This document shows, in pieces, positions 2,961 through 47,372 of a stretch of 64,000 bases of DNA. Position numbers and translations under genes: made by a program. Position 1 is the first letter of the stretch; each line of letters starts with the position of its first letter. Under the pieces are notes generated by a model. That model was not told the DNA's origin. It worked only from the letters and a program-made list of their open reading frames with translations, and did no database searches. Origin of the DNA: an uncultured Chitinophagaceae bacterium (GTDB lineage: Bacteria > Bacteroidota > Bacteroidia > Chitinophagales > Chitinophagaceae); contig CAISCV010000198.1 in the NCBI GenBank assembly GCA_903883945.1, forward strand, positions 5,235-69,234, read 5' to 3'.

Positions 2961-3139
2961 GCTGATGGTGATACGATAGGCATTGTTTGTGGAAGAAATA
3001 AGGGTTTCAGTAATTTAAGAATAATTCAAAAGGTAATAAAACGAGAAATATTACCTTATTTATTCCATTATTAATCTATTTGTTAGAATATAAAATACGG
3101 GGGATAAACTTAAAAATAGTCAATTGCCTATTAAATGTT

Positions 3140-3348
3140 GACAATTTGAAATCCTAAATGACCAATTTGAAATCCTAAATTAGTAATTTGAAATCCTAAA
3201 TTGGTAATTTGGAATCCTAAATTGGCAATTTGAAATCTTAAATTGGTAATTTGGAATCTTAAATTGGTAATTTGAAATCCTAAATTGGCAATTTGAAATC
3301 CTAAATTGGTAATTTGAGATCCTAAATTGGCAATTTGGAATCCTAAAT
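3140..3348. repeat. Tandem array of 10 x 21 bp (first unit 20 bp), consensus TGGYAATTTGRAATCYTAAAT
   Basis: Read directly from the sequence: unit boundaries at 3160, 3181, 3202, 3223, 3244, 3265, 3286, 3307 and 3328. The array ends 4 nt from the recX stop codon and lies in the convergent spacer between the amidase and recX. Confidence 0.95.
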
Positions 3349-3351
3349 TAA

Positions 3352-7084: not shown

Positions 7085-7143
7085 CAGGTTACCAGTTACA
7101 GGGTTCGGGTAGCTTACACTAGAAACCTGTAACCTGAAACCTG
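7085..7143 (-). terminator. Long hairpin made of heptamer-phased sequence, immediately 3' of kpsF
   Basis: CAGGTTACCAGTTACAGGGTTC (7085-7106) pairs with GAAACCTGTAACCTGAAACCTG (7122-7143). It starts 4 nt after the kpsF stop codon. There is no clear U-tract, so terminator function is inferred only. Confidence 0.45.
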
Positions 7144-13241: not shown

Positions 13242-14474
13242 ATGCCACAAAAGCTTCTACAGTTTTTAATATTGTTTTTGTTAGGTACAACGATTGCAAA
13301 GTCTCAACCTGTAATAACAGCAGCAGGAGTTAATCCGCAGTTTGGCGACAACTCTTTTTATAACTATGTAATTTCAAGTATTTCAAACCCAGATGCAGGT
13401 GGCCCCCAAGCTAATTGGGATTATAGCAATCTCCCCCTCGTTTTATTTAGCGATACCATTCGTTTTACGTTAACTACTGGAATGCCTTATTCCAATATTT
13501 TTCCCTATTCTAATATAGTTGGAGTTAGCCTCAATAACACTTACTATCAATATCTCGAAACCAACAACGATAAAATTTCTATAAGCGGCATCTATTCTAA
13601 CTATAGTGGCAGCCCGATTACGGTTAGTTACACTCCTTCCCTTCCTTTAATGAAATTTCCTATGTTTTATGGCAAAACCTATACAGATACTATCCTAGAA
13701 ACAGATGACGCGGTATTGTATGATACCATTTTTTGTACCTCTAGTGTAGATGGATTTGGCACATTGAAGTTACCCAATGCCACCTATACCGATGTGCTTC
13801 GTTTGAAACAAACAGAAATGATTGCCCCCATAGATAGCCTTACTCCAATTAGTTTTAGCACCAAGTACCTGTTTATAAAAAATGGCATACATGGGCAACT
13901 CTTAGAATTAGACAGTACAGATGGGACTGGCTGGCAGGCAGGATACCTTTCTGATTTTATTCTACCCATAGAAATTACCTCTTTTAAAGCTACCTGGCAA
14001 AATAAAATGCCCTTCTTGCAATGGACAGCCCTTAATACCCAAAACACGCAAGCATTTAATGTGCAGCGTAGTGTTGATGGTATTAACTTTAGCACAATTG
14101 CTCAAGTAAATGCAAATGCAGGGGCTTCGTATAATTATCAGGATCCCAATGCTCCCAACAATACGGTATACTATCGGTTGCAACACATTGGTAAAGATGG
14201 ACAAACGTTTTACAGTACTACCGTACAGTTAACGGGAAGCAGTAAACAGTACGTTGTTTTCCCCAATCCGGCAAAAGAAGCGGTACAGGTAGCTATCCCT
14301 TCGGGAAATCCTGTACAATTGTATGTTTATAGTGAAGCAGGCAAATTAATCTACCATAATATAAACTATACAACCACTACTCTTATTGCTACATCTGCCT
14401 GGAGTAAAGGCAATTATGTACTAAGGATAAAAGACAGCGATGGTTGGAAAACAATTCAATTCGAAAAGCAGTAA
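13242..14474 (+). CDS. Secreted protein with a T9SS C-terminal sorting domain
   Basis: It has a signal peptide (MPQKLLQFLILFLLGTTIAKSQ) and a C-terminal segment (VVFPNPAKEAVQVAI...LYVYSEAGKLIY...GNYVLRIKDSDGWKTIQFEKQ) typical of a Por secretion tail. The N-terminal domain was not recognised. Confidence 0.75.
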   Translation: MPQKLLQFLILFLLGTTIAKSQPVITAAGVNPQFGDNSFYNYVISSISNPDAGGPQANWDYSNLPLVLFSDTIRFTLTTGMPYSNIFPYSNIVGVSLNNTYYQYLETNNDKISISGIYSNYSGSPITVSYTPSLPLMKFPMFYGKTYTDTILETDDAVLYDTIFCTSSVDGFGTLKLPNATYTDVLRLKQTEMIAPIDSLTPISFSTKYLFIKNGIHGQLLELDSTDGTGWQAGYLSDFILPIEITSFKATWQNKMPFLQWTALNTQNTQAFNVQRSVDGINFSTIAQVNANAGASYNYQDPNAPNNTVYYRLQHIGKDGQTFYSTTVQLTGSSKQYVVFPNPAKEAVQVAIPSGNPVQLYVYSEAGKLIYHNINYTTTTLIATSAWSKGNYVLRIKDSDGWKTIQFEKQ

Positions 14475-14827
14475 AAAAAGTGTGAATTGGGTGACTAAAA
14501 CTAAAAGAGCTTAAAACAATTAGAATTCTTTGCAAATTCATTCATTGGATATTAACACGAGAATTAAAAATTGCCAGGGTCTGGTATTTTGGGAAGCATG
14601 CTATTTTACATAACCGACAATTATTGATTTATTCGCAGCATTGTGCAAAAGGTTATGATTGTTACCGAAAATGCTTTAGCTATTATTGCATCAGAATGTT
14701 TGAGTTATGAAAATGATTGCTCCTTATTCTTCTATTTATAAATACTTGCTAGATCTTCTTTTGCTAGCATCTTCTATCCATACTCCTCCATGACTTTATG
14801 AACTAATAGGTTAGAAAATTCCGTTTT

Positions 14828-15082
14828 ATGGGGTTTTCGCCCAAAATGATGTCTGATACATCCGTGTTTATGTCTGATACACGCCTGTTTATATCCGATA
14901 CATCCGTGTTCATGTATGATACACGTGTGTTTATGTTCGATACAAGCGTGTTCATGTATGATACGGCTGTGTTTATATCCGATACATACTTGTATATGTC
15001 TGATACGGCCGTGTTCTTATCTGATACAAGCGTGTTTATATCTGATACATCAAAGATTTTATTTGCAAATAATCATTTTTAA
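14828..15082 (+). CDS. Candidate small ORF composed of ten heptad repeats (S-D-T-x-V-F-M/I); coding status unproven
   Basis: 84-aa ORF with ATG at 14828. The 21-bp repeat is in frame. Differences between units are often third-position and synonymous (TTT/TTC, ACA/ACG, GCT/GCC) or conservative (V/L, M/I). It ends 15 nt before the downstream gene. A purely DNA-level repeat is equally possible. Confidence 0.35.
   Translation: MGFSPKMMSDTSVFMSDTRLFISDTSVFMYDTRVFMFDTSVFMYDTAVFISDTYLYMSDTAVFLSDTSVFISDTSKILFANNHF
14852..15051 (+). repeat. Tandem array of ~9.5 x 21 bp, consensus TCTGATACANNNGTGTTYATR
   Basis: Read directly. The GATAC core is invariant, GTGTT is nearly invariant, and 4-5 nt between them are hypervariable. 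Confidence 0.95.
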
Positions 15083-15099
15083 TTAAAAAAACATTTAGT

Positions 15100-16008
15100 A
15101 TGAACACTCGTCAAAACGTTGAGTATTCAGTTTTTCAACAAGTATTGTTATTCTTGGCAGCTTATACCAGCGCATTTGCTGGCAACACACAGTTGCTTGA
15201 TGCCATCGGGAACTTCAAAGGATTTGTGACTGCTATCGACAACGTCTCTAGCAAGAAACAACCAAAGGCTAGTAAGCCTAAAACAAAAATGAAAACCGAC
15301 ACAAGGAAAAGTGTGGTGAGTAAGATAGAAGCTGCATGCTTGTTGGGATTGGAATGGGCAAAGTCAACGAAAAATGAGCAATTGATAAAGGATTTTACCA
15401 TTACCGATAGTAGTTTTAGGGGTAAAATAAATGCGATGCTGATATTAGCAAATTACACTTATGGCGTGCTGAACACTAATAAAGTTGCCCTTATTGCTGC
15501 GACATCTATTACAGCGGCACAGCTAACAGCTATTAACACAGAGATAGCCTTATTGCAAACTTTACAGAAAGCACCTGCTGCGGCGCGTAGCGCTCAAAAG
15601 ACTATTACTGCCCTGTATAAACCAGCATTTTTAGATGCAACTGCTGGAAAGGAAACACTGATAAACCTAATAAGGGGGGCATATACAATTGGCCCCAATG
15701 CAAATCTGCAACTGGTGACTGACCTTGATAATGCACTTATATTTGGTGGTAATGTGCAGCATACCATTTTGAAAGTTACTTTCTTGACTGCTGGAACAAC
15801 TGTTCGGATGGAGGGTGCAATGTTAACGATAACAGAACTGATGCGAGTTGGGGTGAGTAATATAATGGGGGTCGGGCAGATAGCGGAGTTTAAGCCAGGA
15901 ATATATCATGTGACATTCTCGGCATTGGATCATATTTCTCAAACACAAATAATTACTATTGGTGCGGGTGAAAAATTGACTATGACAGTGGAATTGGTGG
16001 GGGCATAG
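15100..16008 (+). CDS. Hypothetical protein (helical N-terminal part, C-terminal beta-sandwich-like domain, no signal peptide); distant paralog of 45633-46667
   Basis: 302 aa. The C-terminus HTILKVTFLTAGTTVRMEGAMLTITELMRVGVSNIMGVGQIAEFKPGIYHVTFSAL...KLTMTVELV aligns by eye with HTPVVITITDANTGVALAGVKGTMLATKELPMSNVSGIMEYATVKDGATTGTFEKVGYI...NSFTVSLV of the other copy. ITAAQLTA also matches LTAPQLTG. Confidence 0.7.
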   Translation: MNTRQNVEYSVFQQVLLFLAAYTSAFAGNTQLLDAIGNFKGFVTAIDNVSSKKQPKASKPKTKMKTDTRKSVVSKIEAACLLGLEWAKSTKNEQLIKDFTITDSSFRGKINAMLILANYTYGVLNTNKVALIAATSITAAQLTAINTEIALLQTLQKAPAAARSAQKTITALYKPAFLDATAGKETLINLIRGAYTIGPNANLQLVTDLDNALIFGGNVQHTILKVTFLTAGTTVRMEGAMLTITELMRVGVSNIMGVGQIAEFKPGIYHVTFSALDHISQTQIITIGAGEKLTMTVELVGA

Positions 16009-16312
16009 GAAGTTATAAGTTGTAAGTCATAAGTTTAAGTTAAGCAAAGAGGTTAAAAGTTGGAGGTTGTGAGACTGAAGACTTTTGACCTTTTTGGAAT
16101 GTTTCGTAATTTACTCGGGTGTAGCTTTTAGTTAAATTGACGTGGACTTGTTTAGGGAGGACATTCTTTGAAATGACGCGTAAAAGGTTTTAGTTAGTTA
16201 AAATAAGAGTTGATTATTGTCTTTTTTGGGGATGATAACAGCCTTGAAAGGGGAATTGAAAGAAGGTGTAGTAGCCTAAATATTTAATTGATGGATAGTT
16301 TTGAGAATATAT

Positions 16313-22615: not shown

Positions 22616-22747
22616 AATGACGTGAACTTGTAGAGACGGATGATCATTCGTCTTATTTGCGAAGCAAATTAATCAATTGAATAATCAATTTAAGACGGAT
22701 GATCATCCGTCTCTACAGCTAATGGGATGCAAACATTCCACGTCATT
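22616..22747. repeat. REPIN-like composite: two inverted copies of a palindromic GTAGAGACGGATGATCAYCCGTCT(CTAC) element inside an outer inverted repeat
   Basis: Element copies lie at 22630-22653 and 22693-22716. The outer arms are AATGACGTG (22616-22624) and CACGTCATT (22739-22747). AGACGGATGATCATCCGTCT is itself a perfect palindrome. Confidence 0.7.
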
Positions 22748-22926: not shown

Positions 22927-23412
22927 AATGAATGGACGGTGTACCAAAATGAACGATCGGTACACACATTGCCCGACGACGGTGCACAAAAATGAATCGC
23001 CGGTGTACCACACATGGATGGACGGTGCATAAAAATGAATCGATGGTGCACCATACATGGATGGACGGTGTACCAAAATGAACCATCGGTACACACATTG
23101 CCCGACGACGGTGTAACAAAATGAATCAACGGTGTACCTTACATGGATGGTCGGTGTACCAAAATGAACCATCGGTACACACCTTGCCCGACGACGGTGT
23201 GCAAAAATGAATCGACGGTGCACCATACATGGATGATCGGTGTACCAAAATGAACCATCGGTACACACCTTGCCCGACGACGGTGTAACAAAATGAATCA
23301 ACGGTGCACCATACATGGATGGTCGGTACACCATACATGTATTGTCGGTGTACCAAAATGAACCATCGGTACTCACCTTGCCCAACGACGATGTAACAAA
23401 ATGAATCAACGG
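22927..23412. repeat. Tandem array of ~22 sub-units of 21-22 bp, organised as an ~86-bp super-unit (CGGTGTACCAAAATGAACCAT / CGGTACACACCTTGCCCGACGA / CGGTGTAACAAAATGAATCAA / CGGTGCACCATACATGGATGGT)
   Basis: CGGTGTACCAAAATGAAC recurs at 22937, 23066, 23152, 23238 and 23346, giving spacings of 129, 86, 86 and 108. GGTGTACC and GGTACACC in adjacent sub-units are reverse complements, so they can form hairpins. Confidence 0.9.
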
Positions 23413-38330: not shown

Positions 38331-38560
38331 TTTTCAGACGGTCTGAACAGTTGTTTAAACCGTCTGATTTTTTTTAGACGTTCTCGAAGACCATTTAGAA
38401 CGTCTAGATTTATTTTAGACGTCCTCGAAGTTCATTTAGACGGTCTGAATTTATTTTAGACGCTCTCAAAATTCATTTAGAGCGTCTGGATTTATTTTTA
38501 ACGTCCTCGAAGACCATTTAGAGCGTCTAAATATATTTTAGACGTTCTCGTGGCTTATTT
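38331..38560. repeat. Array of ~10 sub-units with ~20.5-bp phase (TTTAGACGNYCTCGAAGNYCA alternating with TTTAGASCGTCTRRATTTAT) that form 5-6 consecutive hairpins
   Basis: The TAGACG / TAGAGCG core recurs at 38375, 38416, 38437, 38457, 38478, 38499, 38519 and 38539. One example of pairing is TAGACGTTCT...AGAACGTCTA. Confidence 0.85.
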
Positions 38561-38690
38561 AAACTGTATGGATATAGTTTGAATCTTCTGTGAATGTTTG
38601 TAAACAGTTCAAACAAATAGAAATCTATTCTTTTTCTGTATTGGGCACTGTTTTCTAGATCAATCCTATTTTTTGATTTTTTACAATCAA

Positions 38691-45546: not shown

Positions 45547-45632
45547 ACTTGTTTATCTTAAAAGTACACGTAGAAACTTTAGAAGTTTTACTTGTGTTTG
45601 GTTACAATGGCCTCAAGCGTGGTGTCTAACAA

Positions 45633-46667
45633 CTAAAAACTAACAACCACTTCCTTTACCAAAGCAGCTATTTTAGCAGCCTTTCTCAAATCTGCCTTAG
45701 CCTGTTTGTCCGCAATTAGTTGAGCAATAGTGGCATTTATTGCTTTTTCTTGGGCTTCCGTCATTATACCAGGAACAAGTGAAACTGTAAAACTATTCAT
45801 TTTGCCCCGCACAATGCCCATAGCCATTATCTTGGTAATATAACCCACCTTCTCAAAAGTGCCAGTTGTTGCCCCATCTTTTACAGTGGCATATTCCATA
45901 ATGCCAGACACGTTACTCATAGGCAATTCCTTCGTAGCTAGCATGGTACCCTTTACGCCAGCAAGTGCAACTCCTGTGTTTGCGTCGGTAATAGTAATTA
46001 CAACTGGCGTATGTCTCACAGTAATGTCAGGAAGTTTACATGCCTTCATCAGTCCATTATAAAATGCGGGATGCGGAATTTTATAATCTTTTACCAAACT
46101 TTTGAGATCGGCAATATCGGCAGTAGTAAGCCGCATAGCGGTATCGAAAGCTTTGGTAAGCACAGGGTTGTTTGTGTTTACCAAAACAGCAGACCCCTTC
46201 ATTGCTTTAAAACCATTTATCTTAGCCAAAAAACCAGTTAACTGTGGAGCAGTTAAATAGTCGGCAGTTATCAATAGCAGGTTATCATTCATTACATCAT
46301 ACACATTCATTAATCTGTTCGCACACTGTACGTCTGCTGCTATCGAATAAAAAGTAAATGTACCATTGAGTGCATCAGCTAATGTATGATTGCCAAGCAT
46401 ATCGAGCTTTACCCTACTCCTTGAACACAAATTTGCAGCTACTTCACACACTTCCTGCTTTTTAATTAATTTATCTAAACTATAACCCGAATTGTCTGCC
46501 GCAGCTTTATCACCCGCAAGCACTGCCGCCAAACAATCTGCTTCTGTTTTAGTGGCACAGGCACTAAAAGCTATATCGGCATTATAAATAGCCAAATTGG
46601 ATGGAAGCGTTAAAAAAGCACAAACGCCTAAATTTCTTGTTCCTTGTGCTACTTGAATATTATTCAT
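45633..46667 (-). CDS. Hypothetical protein (helical N-terminal part, C-terminal beta-sandwich-like domain, no signal peptide); distant paralog of 15100-16008
   Basis: 344 aa. See the alignment noted for 15100-16008. It has an extra C-terminal helical tail (TEAQEKAINATIAQLIADKQAKADLRKAAKIAALVKE). Confidence 0.7.
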   Translation of the reverse strand: MNNIQVAQGTRNLGVCAFLTLPSNLAIYNADIAFSACATKTEADCLAAVLAGDKAAADNSGYSLDKLIKKQEVCEVAANLCSRSRVKLDMLGNHTLADALNGTFTFYSIAADVQCANRLMNVYDVMNDNLLLITADYLTAPQLTGFLAKINGFKAMKGSAVLVNTNNPVLTKAFDTAMRLTTADIADLKSLVKDYKIPHPAFYNGLMKACKLPDITVRHTPVVITITDANTGVALAGVKGTMLATKELPMSNVSGIMEYATVKDGATTGTFEKVGYITKIMAMGIVRGKMNSFTVSLVPGIMTEAQEKAINATIAQLIADKQAKADLRKAAKIAALVKEVVVSF

Positions 46668-47039
46668 GTTGAGTAAATTTATTTGTAAAAAAAATGAATA
46701 GAAGTGGCTAGTTGTTAGTTGTTAGTAAAGAAGGATTGAGGATGAAAGAAAAGATAAGGTTTGACAGCAAAAAGCTTTAATGCACTCAAATAATCAAACC
46801 GTAAAACCTGAAACGGAAAACTTAGAATTTTTGCTTAACCCCTGAAAATTCAAAACTTAAGATTCAAAATTTACCATTTCTTTCTTTTGCTAAAACGCTG
46901 GGAAAATTAGCTGTAGAGACATGCGTAATGGTTCTTTTCGTATCAGATTGGAATGGTAATTATAACAAGCGAAAGTTTTAGGTAGCCGAACCAAGGGCGT
47001 ATCCAAAATTTCAGAATACCAAAGGTATCGCATATTGTT

Positions 47040-47372
47040 TCATTTAAAAATCATTAATTTAAAATATACAAAAATAAAGTTTTTGCAATCACCCGTATAG
47101 ACGCAAAGTATTACTTCTTGGGCGGAACGTCTCGTTTTTTTTACCCTTGCCTTGATTACAGATTTGACAACTTCTAAAAAGTTGTCAAATCCTATCAAAG
47201 TATCGGATAGTGCTATCAAAGTATCGGATAGTGCTATCAAAGTGTGGGATAGTGCTATCAAAGTATCGGATAGTGCTATCAAAGTATCGGATAGTGCTAT
47301 CAAAGTGTGGAATATCGCTATCTCGGATAGTGCTATCAAAGTATGAGGAATCGCTATCTCTTCCATATACAT
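47040..47372 (-). CDS. Candidate ORF containing heptad repeats (S-D/H-T-L-I-A-L); coding status unproven
   Basis: 110-aa ORF. The 21-bp array is in frame and on the same strand as the downstream paralog. The units are nearly identical, so there is no substitution pattern with which to test for coding. Confidence 0.25.
   Translation of the reverse strand: MYMEEIAIPHTLIALSEIAIFHTLIALSDTLIALSDTLIALSHTLIALSDTLIALSDTLIGFDNFLEVVKSVIKARVKKTRRSAQEVILCVYTGDCKNFIFVYFKLMIFK
47163..47189. repeat. Perfect palindrome TTTGACAACTT-ctaaa-AAGTTGTCAAA flanking the 21-bp array
   Basis: Read directly. The arms are 11 bp with a 5-nt spacer, and it ends 1 nt before the first array unit. It is operator-like, but no function has been demonstrated. 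Confidence 0.6.
47191..47362 (-). repeat. Tandem array of ~8 x 21 bp; gene-sense unit TCCGATACTTTGATAGCACTA (+ strand TATCGGATAGTGCTATCAAAG)
   Basis: Read directly. Two units carry GTGTGG instead of GTATCG, and the last two units are degenerate. Confidence 0.95.

Follow-up and report, generated by a model that had tools for sequence, protein, structure and literature searches.

A 21-bp tandem repeat array ahead of an uncharacterised gene family in freshwater Chitinophagaceae: repeat protein or nucleic-acid platform?

Does a tandem array that can be translated from end to end encode a repeat protein, or is it a nucleic-acid element that happens to lack stop codons? The question is raised by a locus in a 64,000-nucleotide stretch of DNA from an uncultured Chitinophagaceae bacterium (contig CAISCV010000198.1, positions 5,235 to 69,234), referred to here as the window. 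An array of 21-bp units, array A, lies just ahead of the gene for a 302-aa protein. It is enclosed in an ATG-initiated 84-codon open reading frame (ORF), as a first-pass annotation had reported, and the translation is exactly as given there. That annotation left two readings: (a) a real heptad-repeat protein or leader peptide; and (b) an array of DNA-level sites whose frame is open by chance. The second is the better fit, the period and the unit count being kept while the unit sequence turns over. Judged from sequence comparison, the 84-codon ORF most likely arises as a side effect of a non-coding array. Array A is read here, tentatively and short of probable, as a cis-acting, helically phased repeat platform that would act at the nucleic-acid level to tune the expression of the cassette around it, and not as a conserved protein gene. 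The cassette is previously undescribed and is found in freshwater Chitinophagaceae.

The 21-bp array and its reading frame

Array A consists of head-to-tail units (Table 1) that Tandem Repeats Finder (TRF) delimits at 14849-15051, with a period of 21 bp, 9.7 copies, 70% matches, no indels and a score of 182. With a 42-bp dimer as the unit, matches rise to 79%, and the units alternate in dimer order. Repeat phasing finds 10 copies at a spacing of exactly 21 bp. Each unit is made of a conserved 12-nt core, ATRTCYGATACA, and a 9-nt variable part. The motif TCYGATAC occurs seven times in array A, four times in the array of a second module described below, and twice elsewhere in the window. The bipartite motif first proposed, GATAC-N5-GTGTT, finds no match; the half-sites are in fact four nucleotides apart (GATAC-N4-GTGTT). 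Self-identity is 0.69 at a lag of 21, 0.78 at a lag of 42 and 0.23, the background value, at a lag of 7; because of this last value, a trimer of heptamers or a 7-nt simple repeat was rejected for array A. Measured against a null that preserves the repeats, RNA structure in the arrays is not in excess (z -1.4 to +1.5); a z of about -2.5 obtained with an ordinary shuffle vanishes once the null keeps the repeat structure. No terminator-like hairpin was found between 14794 and 15099, and Rfam gave no match at the gathering threshold for the whole window or at a relaxed threshold for the two modules.

Relatives of the 302-aa gene at 66-94% identity were gathered with their flanks (L numbers below). 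The closest public loci are contigs of Chitinophagaceae metagenome-assembled genomes (MAGs), and lake metagenomes carry the sequence. A 21-bp array stands at the same site in every locus whose upstream DNA is present. All 13 related arrays have a period of 21 bp and 10-13 units (210-273 bp), and none falls below about 10 units, though short arrays assemble easily. Strains differ in copy number, with 10 units in the window and in contigs from metagenomes X1-X3, and 11 in L001. The orientation of the array relative to the gene is constant, and its site is kept across more than 30% protein divergence. The units of one array are homogenised, whereas unit sequences differ completely between lineages and form three classes: i) TCTGATACA… in the window, L001, L026, L007, L013 and L021; ii) CAAGATTACATTGCT… in L003-6 and L017; and iii) GCTGAC/A-CTCAAAGAT… in L014, L022, L002, L015 and L023. 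The 12-nt core of the window is still present in L007 and L013, whose protein identity is 73-75%, a distance at which the leader outside a small upstream ORF can no longer be aligned.

Four independent contigs of an 82% relative (L009-L012) carry no array. All of them end no more than 160 nt (76-157 nt) upstream of the gene, so they do not show that the array is dispensable. Their ends fall inside a divergent gene starting MEETQFNFDLFEREAIAGLRSGKKLEGK, with a palindrome (TGTGTCAAATT…AATTTGACACA) in between, and a multi-copy element is suggested at this point. An insertion-sequence transposase was considered for the divergent gene; it was a guess without support.

According to reading (a), the array would encode a small protein of ~77-84 aa, (M/I)SDTxVF repeated ten times, made together with the 302-aa protein and perhaps its partner, and changing in length by in-frame slippage. 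The open frame of array A is uninformative alone. At ~36% GC, the estimated chance that any one frame of a 7-codon unit is free of stops is ~0.6, and in that case the array is open from end to end. The 84-codon ORF is put down to this: 21 bp is divisible by three, and the unit has by chance no stop in the frame concerned. Repeats of 3n length yield convincing "heptad-repeat proteins" by chance, and a comparative test separates such an artefact from a constrained gene, here one of 28 aa (see below). For array A, shuffling within unit columns predicts just 0.3 stops in the heptad frame. Further largely open frames cross it at 14916-15086 on the plus strand and 14803-14955 on the minus strand, and wherever one frame is open across an array, two or more are.

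The comparison between loci argues against a protein. L026, with 85% gene identity and the same unit class and SDT frame as the window, has a TGA stop at unit 7; in L003-6, L017, L002, L022 and L015 every sense frame is interrupted by stops; and six of the 12 lineages of the 302-aa family have no sense ORF spanning the array. TAA recurs in exactly the slot held by CAA, GAA or AAA in other units. Stops in the heptad frame, summed over 14 arrays, number 24 against 23 expected from column shuffling, so there is no depletion. The first-pass annotation had named two findings in orthologous arrays that would refute a protein: a period that is not a multiple of three, which does not occur, the period being 21 bp throughout, and stops in the frame, which do, so that reading (a) fails by that annotation's own standard. 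The ATG of the array ORF is missing in L007, L013 and L014.

The substitutions agree. Under the best unit pairing, the array ORFs of the window and L001 differ by 12 changes, a small sample from one pair, of which 3 are synonymous and 9 non-synonymous, a ratio of non-synonymous to synonymous changes per site (pN/pS) of 0.83. Neutrality predicts 2.6 and 9.4; gene-like constraint would make about 7 synonymous and about 5 not (binomial P ~0.015, our own arithmetic). The pN/pS of the 302-aa gene is 0.16-0.22, and 0.16 for the window versus L001. The polymorphisms among L003-6 (6 sites) are too few for a codon test. Among the units of array A, the summed entropy at codon positions 1, 2 and 3 is 4.2, 3.5 and 4.6, so the third position is not favoured. 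The 84-aa product has no homologues among 5.8 billion proteins, a result to which the low-complexity filter may contribute. Pfam gives nothing above threshold (YceM-like_C is below it, E 0.0003, 21.5 bits versus a cut-off of 27), and PHROGs, PADLOC and NCBIfam have no match. The distance from its TAA (15080-15082) to the ATG of the 302-aa gene is 17 nt, and not 15 nt as first stated. Stops in orthologues, ATG losses, a pN/pS of ~0.8 and the lack of homologues together tell against reading (a).

The cassette, its paralogue and the other arrays of the window

Array A belongs to a conserved block of exactly 14681-16095, ordered as small ORF, short linker, about ten 21-bp units, A-rich spacer, 302-aa gene, heptamer array and terminator. 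Beyond the edges of this cassette the flanks are unrelated in blastn comparisons, even in L001 (94% protein identity), where other genes lie on both sides. The neighbours differ at every other locus as well, and two copies occur in one MAG. With flanks that differ completely and a second copy within one MAG, the cassette is portable or paralogous. Neither its boundaries nor the small ORF, the terminator or the second, paralogous module were in the first-pass annotation. No Bacteroidetes -7 box (TAnnTTTG) was found in 14400-15100 on either strand, and a sigma-70 promoter scan at the locus stayed at background level. The neighbours in the window are chromosomal (SusC/D and a type IX secretion system cargo protein). 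Some related loci have neighbours of the kind common in defence islands (SIR2_2, ParE, Zeta toxin).

The 28-aa small ORF was found in nearly all related loci (L001, L003-6, L017/18, L022/28, L026, L002, L015/16 and L007). Its conservation peaks at the C-terminal IHxPP, and its pN/pS is 0.04 versus L022 and 0.13 versus L003, which means that it is under stronger constraint than the 302-aa gene. The peptide has no family match. It may be a leader peptide, perhaps of the arrest type, or else a small protein, and gene callers would probably miss it. In lake metagenome X1 it is covered at a read depth of ~75, the flanks at 11, and just past its stop the contigs part; with a depth so far above the flanks, the small ORF must be multi-copy. 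The same holds for the terminator, whose depth of 43-56 is 4-5 times that of the flanks (11). The terminator folds with -15 to -21 kcal/mol in 8 loci, varies in a way that is G.U-compatible on the sense strand only, and is reused behind different genes (L003 4016-4060 and 4506-4552), including a DUF5618 gene. Together with the arrays, the multi-copy small ORF and terminator fragment short-read assemblies of lake bacteria.

Table 1. Features of the cassette, the second module and the other long-period arrays (window coordinates)
Feature	Position	Strand	Basis or remarks
Left cassette edge, AGAATG(T/C)TT motif, presumed promoter-proximal	14681..14706	+	blastn: similarity to L001 from 14681, to L003-6 from 14691
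Small ORF, 28 aa, MKMIAPYSSIYKYLLDLLLLASSIHTPP-stop, ends IHTPP-stop	14707..14793	+	Presence across loci, pN/pS
11-bp hairpin (GAAAAUUCCGU-UUU-AUGGGGUUUUC), conserved GCCCAAAATG directly after	14814..14838	+	RNA fold
84-codon ORF of the first-pass annotation	14828..15082	+	Judged incidental, at most a translated spacer unconserved as protein
21-bp array A, ten head-to-tail units and a partial eleventh to ~15065	14849..15058	+	TRF, repeat phasing
A-rich spacer (…CAAAAAACA-N5-6-ATG), conserved ahead of the 302-aa gene	15059..15099	+	Upstream sequences of all loci
302-aa protein gene	15100..16008	+	ORF; uncharacterised family of ~300-aa proteins
Heptamer array AAGTTAT x4.9, directly after the stop codon	16010..16042	+	TRF
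Two-tier hairpin and T-run (GGTYRAARGT…CTTTTGACC), intrinsic terminator, right cassette edge	16051..16095	+	Folding, variation
7-bp array after the 344-aa gene	45626..45647		TRF
344-aa distant paralogue of the 302-aa protein	45633..46667	-	blastp: 26% identity over 183 aa, E 9e-7
Conserved leader, ~160 nt, upstream of the 344-aa family	46888..47048	-	Also L030 1697-1857, L031 1637-1793, L034 1416-1571
Second-module 21-bp array, minus-strand unit CTATCCGATACTTTGATAGCA	47192..47344	-	TRF: 5.5 copies, 95%
21-bp x10 array (TTGGCAATTTGAAATCCTAAA)	3138..3349		Between the convergent 3' ends of recX and an amidase gene
43-bp array, ~11 copies	22935..23412		TRF
41-bp array, 5.5 copies	38354..38580		TRF

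The description of the downstream protein as a helical N-terminal part joined to a carboxypeptidase-regulatory-like C-terminal sandwich was borne out by AlphaFold2, Foldseek and profile searches. The AlphaFold2 model has a predicted local distance difference test score (pLDDT) of 94 with a deep alignment of 73 sequences; a shallow alignment gave 61. It comprises a helical N-domain (residues 1-215) with a conserved basic loop at ~50-70, and a seven-stranded transthyretin-like/CarboxypepD_reg beta-sandwich (223-300); residues 3-21 are modelled as a confidently packed helix with conserved polar residues. Fold searches (Foldseek, PDB and BFVD) and profile searches match the sandwich only, to carboxypeptidase D transthyretin-like domains, the SusC N-terminal extension and phage baseplate or fibre Ig-like domains, and the N-domain finds no match by PDB sequence-profile search or fold search. 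A profile search places 271 clusters at 50% identity in the family, and Pfam recognises CarboxypepD_reg alone over 73 members. Defence, phage, plasmid and NCBIfam searches with the protein were negative.

A second, paralogous module occupies 47372-45633 on the minus strand. Its array unit shares a TATCCGATAC core with that of array A and contains the dyads GATAG-TG-CTATC and TATC-G-GATA. The leader of the 344-aa family starts with a promoter-like TACCTTTG box, ends with an invariant TTTCCCRGCGKTTTAGCA, and forms a hairpin in which three pairs are changed on both sides; it has no Rfam match. Another member of this family, L033, has its own, unrelated 21-bp x10 array. At least two subfamilies of a widespread, uncharacterised family of ~300-aa proteins are packaged with arrays of fixed period and fixed size in freshwater Chitinophagaceae. 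Directly after the second array lies a perfect inverted repeat with 13-nt arms (GATTTGACAACTT-TTTAG-AAGTTGTCAAATC; 47165-47189, minus strand), which might end a separate short transcript.

Three further long-period arrays lie elsewhere in the window. The array at 3138-3349 has a clear 7-bp sub-period (lag-7 identity 0.55) and is the only one here that fits a heptamer trimer. The 43- and 41-bp arrays, upstream of a SusC gene and adjoining a DinB-family gene, have units made of two ~21-bp half-units with internal dyads (GGTGTACC…GGTACAC; AGACNGTCT). The SusC upstream region also holds a long inverted repeat at 22631-22717 (GTAGAGACGGATGATCATTCGTC … GACGGATGATCATCCGTCTCTAC).

Other repeats were seen at and around the cassettes. 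In L026, positions 1-95 are the tail of another 21-bp array, whose units (CAAGATTATATTGCTTTTAGG) belong to a different class; it lies ~200 nt ahead of the small ORF of the cassette, so arrays can occur in series. A telomere-like heptamer array (GGGTTTA/GGTTTAA, 9.6 copies) stands between the 21-bp array and the gene at L015 2402-2468. Heptamer arrays directly after stops or just before starts were observed at 7122-7143, 16010-16042 and 45626-45647, and in L031 at ~1865-1985 and ~3185-3290; their unit sequence and copy number, up to 16, vary between close relatives. The heptamer array that follows the 302-aa gene has 14 copies in L001, and other heptamers take its place in L002, L007 and L009.

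Readings of the array

None of the five long-period arrays of the window departs in its period by more than 1 bp from a multiple of 21 (21, 21, 21, 41 and 43 bp), a clustering that is unlikely for unconstrained minisatellites (roughly (6/49)^4, an estimate). Periods of 41 and 43 bp cannot be coding periods, which suggests a constraint on about two turns of the DNA helix and not on codons. The multiples of 21 bp, the kept core and unit number and the lack of excess RNA structure likewise point to a two-helical-turn DNA constraint with a fixed platform size. Each 12-nt core would be presented once per two turns, and ten to thirteen cores on one face of the duplex would form a platform of fixed size, either for cooperative protein binding or as a phased DNA bend. 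Such a platform would set the expression level of the 302-aa gene, and gain or loss of units, as between the 10 and 11 of close strains, may serve as a slow tuning knob. The comparison shows the layout of the cassette, its pattern of conservation, the absence of coding constraint on the array and the portability of the whole; we infer action as DNA rather than as leader RNA, and likewise protein binding and the identity of the binding protein. If the arrays are indeed binding platforms, they would amount to a new cis-regulatory architecture, in a phylum where genes are controlled differently from model bacteria.

Several points weigh against a DNA platform. The 21-bp length passes on automatically under unequal crossing-over, which makes its constancy within the family weak evidence alone, and short-read assembly may account in part for the narrow copy-number range, at least as regards its ceiling. 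Neither Foldseek nor Pfam recognised a DNA-binding fold in the 302-aa protein, leaving the platform without a candidate binding partner. Small ORF, array and gene probably share one transcript, with the array in the middle, and if it is transcribed there, a role at the RNA level is equally natural. The remaining points are the signs of translation that speak for reading (a). A frame is open across the entire array in the window, L001, L007/8, L013, L014 and L023. In L023 this is a coiled-coil-like ORF of 129 codons over a diverged array, unlikely to be open by chance at a stop probability of ~9% per codon. The array ORF of L007/8 overlaps the gene start by 4 nt (ATGA). CCAAAA-N0-3-ATG, a good A-rich context, is found at the 5' edge of the array in seven of the eight leaders with the small ORF, opening frames of 3, 8, 23, 23, 41, 47 or ~78 codons. 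Serine at the codon that the first-pass annotation called hypervariable is drawn from both the TCN and the AGY families, which hints at selection on the peptide. Going by these frames, the array may be translated in some lineages, such as L023. Against the broken frames and near-neutral changes described above, a heptad-repeat protein conserved and co-made with the 302-aa protein is nevertheless unlikely.

The preferred platform must also be set against a functionless origin, in which slippage and unequal recombination, in a lineage prone to 7n-bp repeats, leave a neutral minisatellite tolerated in a non-essential spacer. Slippage is known to affect heptamer repeats readily in several phyla, Bacteroidetes among them (PMC4679880); five long arrays and many heptamer arrays occur in the window in unrelated settings; and complete turnover of units between lineages with homogenisation inside each array is what such a process would leave. 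Neutrality does not, however, account well for persistence at the same site over >30% protein divergence, for the floor of ~10 units, for a 12-nt core kept where neutral flanks have randomised, for the recurrence of this array type with a paralogous family, or for the lack of a 7-bp sub-period in array A. A neutral array is improbable to about the same degree as the protein.

A serious rival to the DNA platform, though rated somewhat lower again in probability, is action as a leader RNA. By analogy, 10-13 single-stranded repeats might bind an oligomeric RNA-binding protein, as in the case of the trp RNA-binding attenuation protein (TRAP), or the array might be a spacer whose occupancy by ribosomes or Rho is set by stalling at Pro-Pro-stop, in the manner of tnaC-spacer-tnaA. 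This would suit a 28-aa ORF most conserved at its C-terminal IHxPP, a ~300-nt spacer between it and the gene, and the constant orientation of the array. No intrinsic terminator separates array and gene in the window, a single one closing the cassette, and a lack of structure, as in these arrays, is expected where proteins bind or Rho loads. Possible models are TnaC (PMC8429421) and polyproline stalling under coupled transcription and translation (PMC5021804). The C:G ratio is, however, inconsistent across the arrays, which are not consistently C-rich and G-poor; the array of the second module (A5) lies upstream of the sole promoter-like TACCTTTG box there; the array at 3138-3349 lies outside any leader; and periods of 41 and 43 bp speak for the geometry of DNA.

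A more elaborate scheme, put forward as the most speculative of these, would make the cassette a new kind of self-contained regulatory and recognition unit in Bacteroidota: an arrest-type leader peptide (IHxPP-stop), a platform with a fixed stoichiometry of 10-13 units of 21 nt, and a protein whose novel helical domain reads it. Platform and protein would co-diversify between paralogous cassettes, as iterons and Rep do, and the small ORF and terminator would supply portable homology for movement between chromosomal sites. A defence system or mobile element was rejected, since PADLOC, PHROGs, NCBIfam, phage and plasmid searches were all negative. The 28-aa gene under strong constraint, the cassette that carries it and the ~21-bp periodicity across the genome are worth following up.

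Comparison with known systems

The literature searched yielded no account of such 21-bp arrays in Bacteroidota; the closest parallels are compared below. Intergenic heptanucleotide repeats (TAACTGA and others) are known from Beggiatoaceae, Cyanobacteria and some Bacteroidetes (PMC4679880). The 7-bp arrays flanking the cassette resemble them in lying by stops and starts and in varying in 7-nt steps (PMC4679880). In contrast, the 21-bp array has no 7-bp sub-period, and many different heptamers occur here with no shared word.

Mycobacterial interspersed repetitive units (MIRUs) are 46-101 bp long and present in few copies. They stand at gene starts and carry a co-oriented ORF, which may share 4 nt with the start of the gene (PMC12548453). 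Like them, the 21-bp arrays are tandem repeats at gene starts, presumably within transcription units, with a strain-variable copy number and, in L007, an ATGA overlap. They differ in their regular 21-bp units, in the window ORF that ends 17 nt before the gene, and in an ORF that is broken in half of the lineages.

In the trp leader, repeated triplets are bound by TRAP. The cassette shares with it about eleven evenly spaced repeats, in what may be a leader, here of 21 nt and not triplets. With leader attenuation as in tnaC-tnaA, and with polyproline leaders sensitive to EF-P, it shares a short upstream ORF ending in proline and a long spacer before the gene. Unlike these attenuation systems, no rut-like (Rho utilisation) composition, alternative hairpins or known binding protein were found in the cassette.

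Iteron- and centromere-type arrays include plasmid iterons, parC of R1 with ten 11-bp repeats, and the 20-bp repeats of pSK41. The cassette departs from these: searches revealed neither a fold of the Rep, ParR or ParB type nor a ParA partner. The AlphaFold2 model and Foldseek reveal no cognate DNA-binding protein (winged helix, ribbon-helix-helix or helix-turn-helix) encoded by the adjoining gene, and the location is chromosomal and not that of a replicon or partition locus, with no matches in plasmid and phage collections. The likeness is in the DNA itself: helix-phased tandem direct repeats of ~20 bp, in roughly ten copies, stand beside a putative partner gene, and the unit sequence varies between related elements. 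Helically phased tandem repeats of ~17-22 bp, the feature typical of iterons, are present in array A as 10 units of exactly 21 bp.

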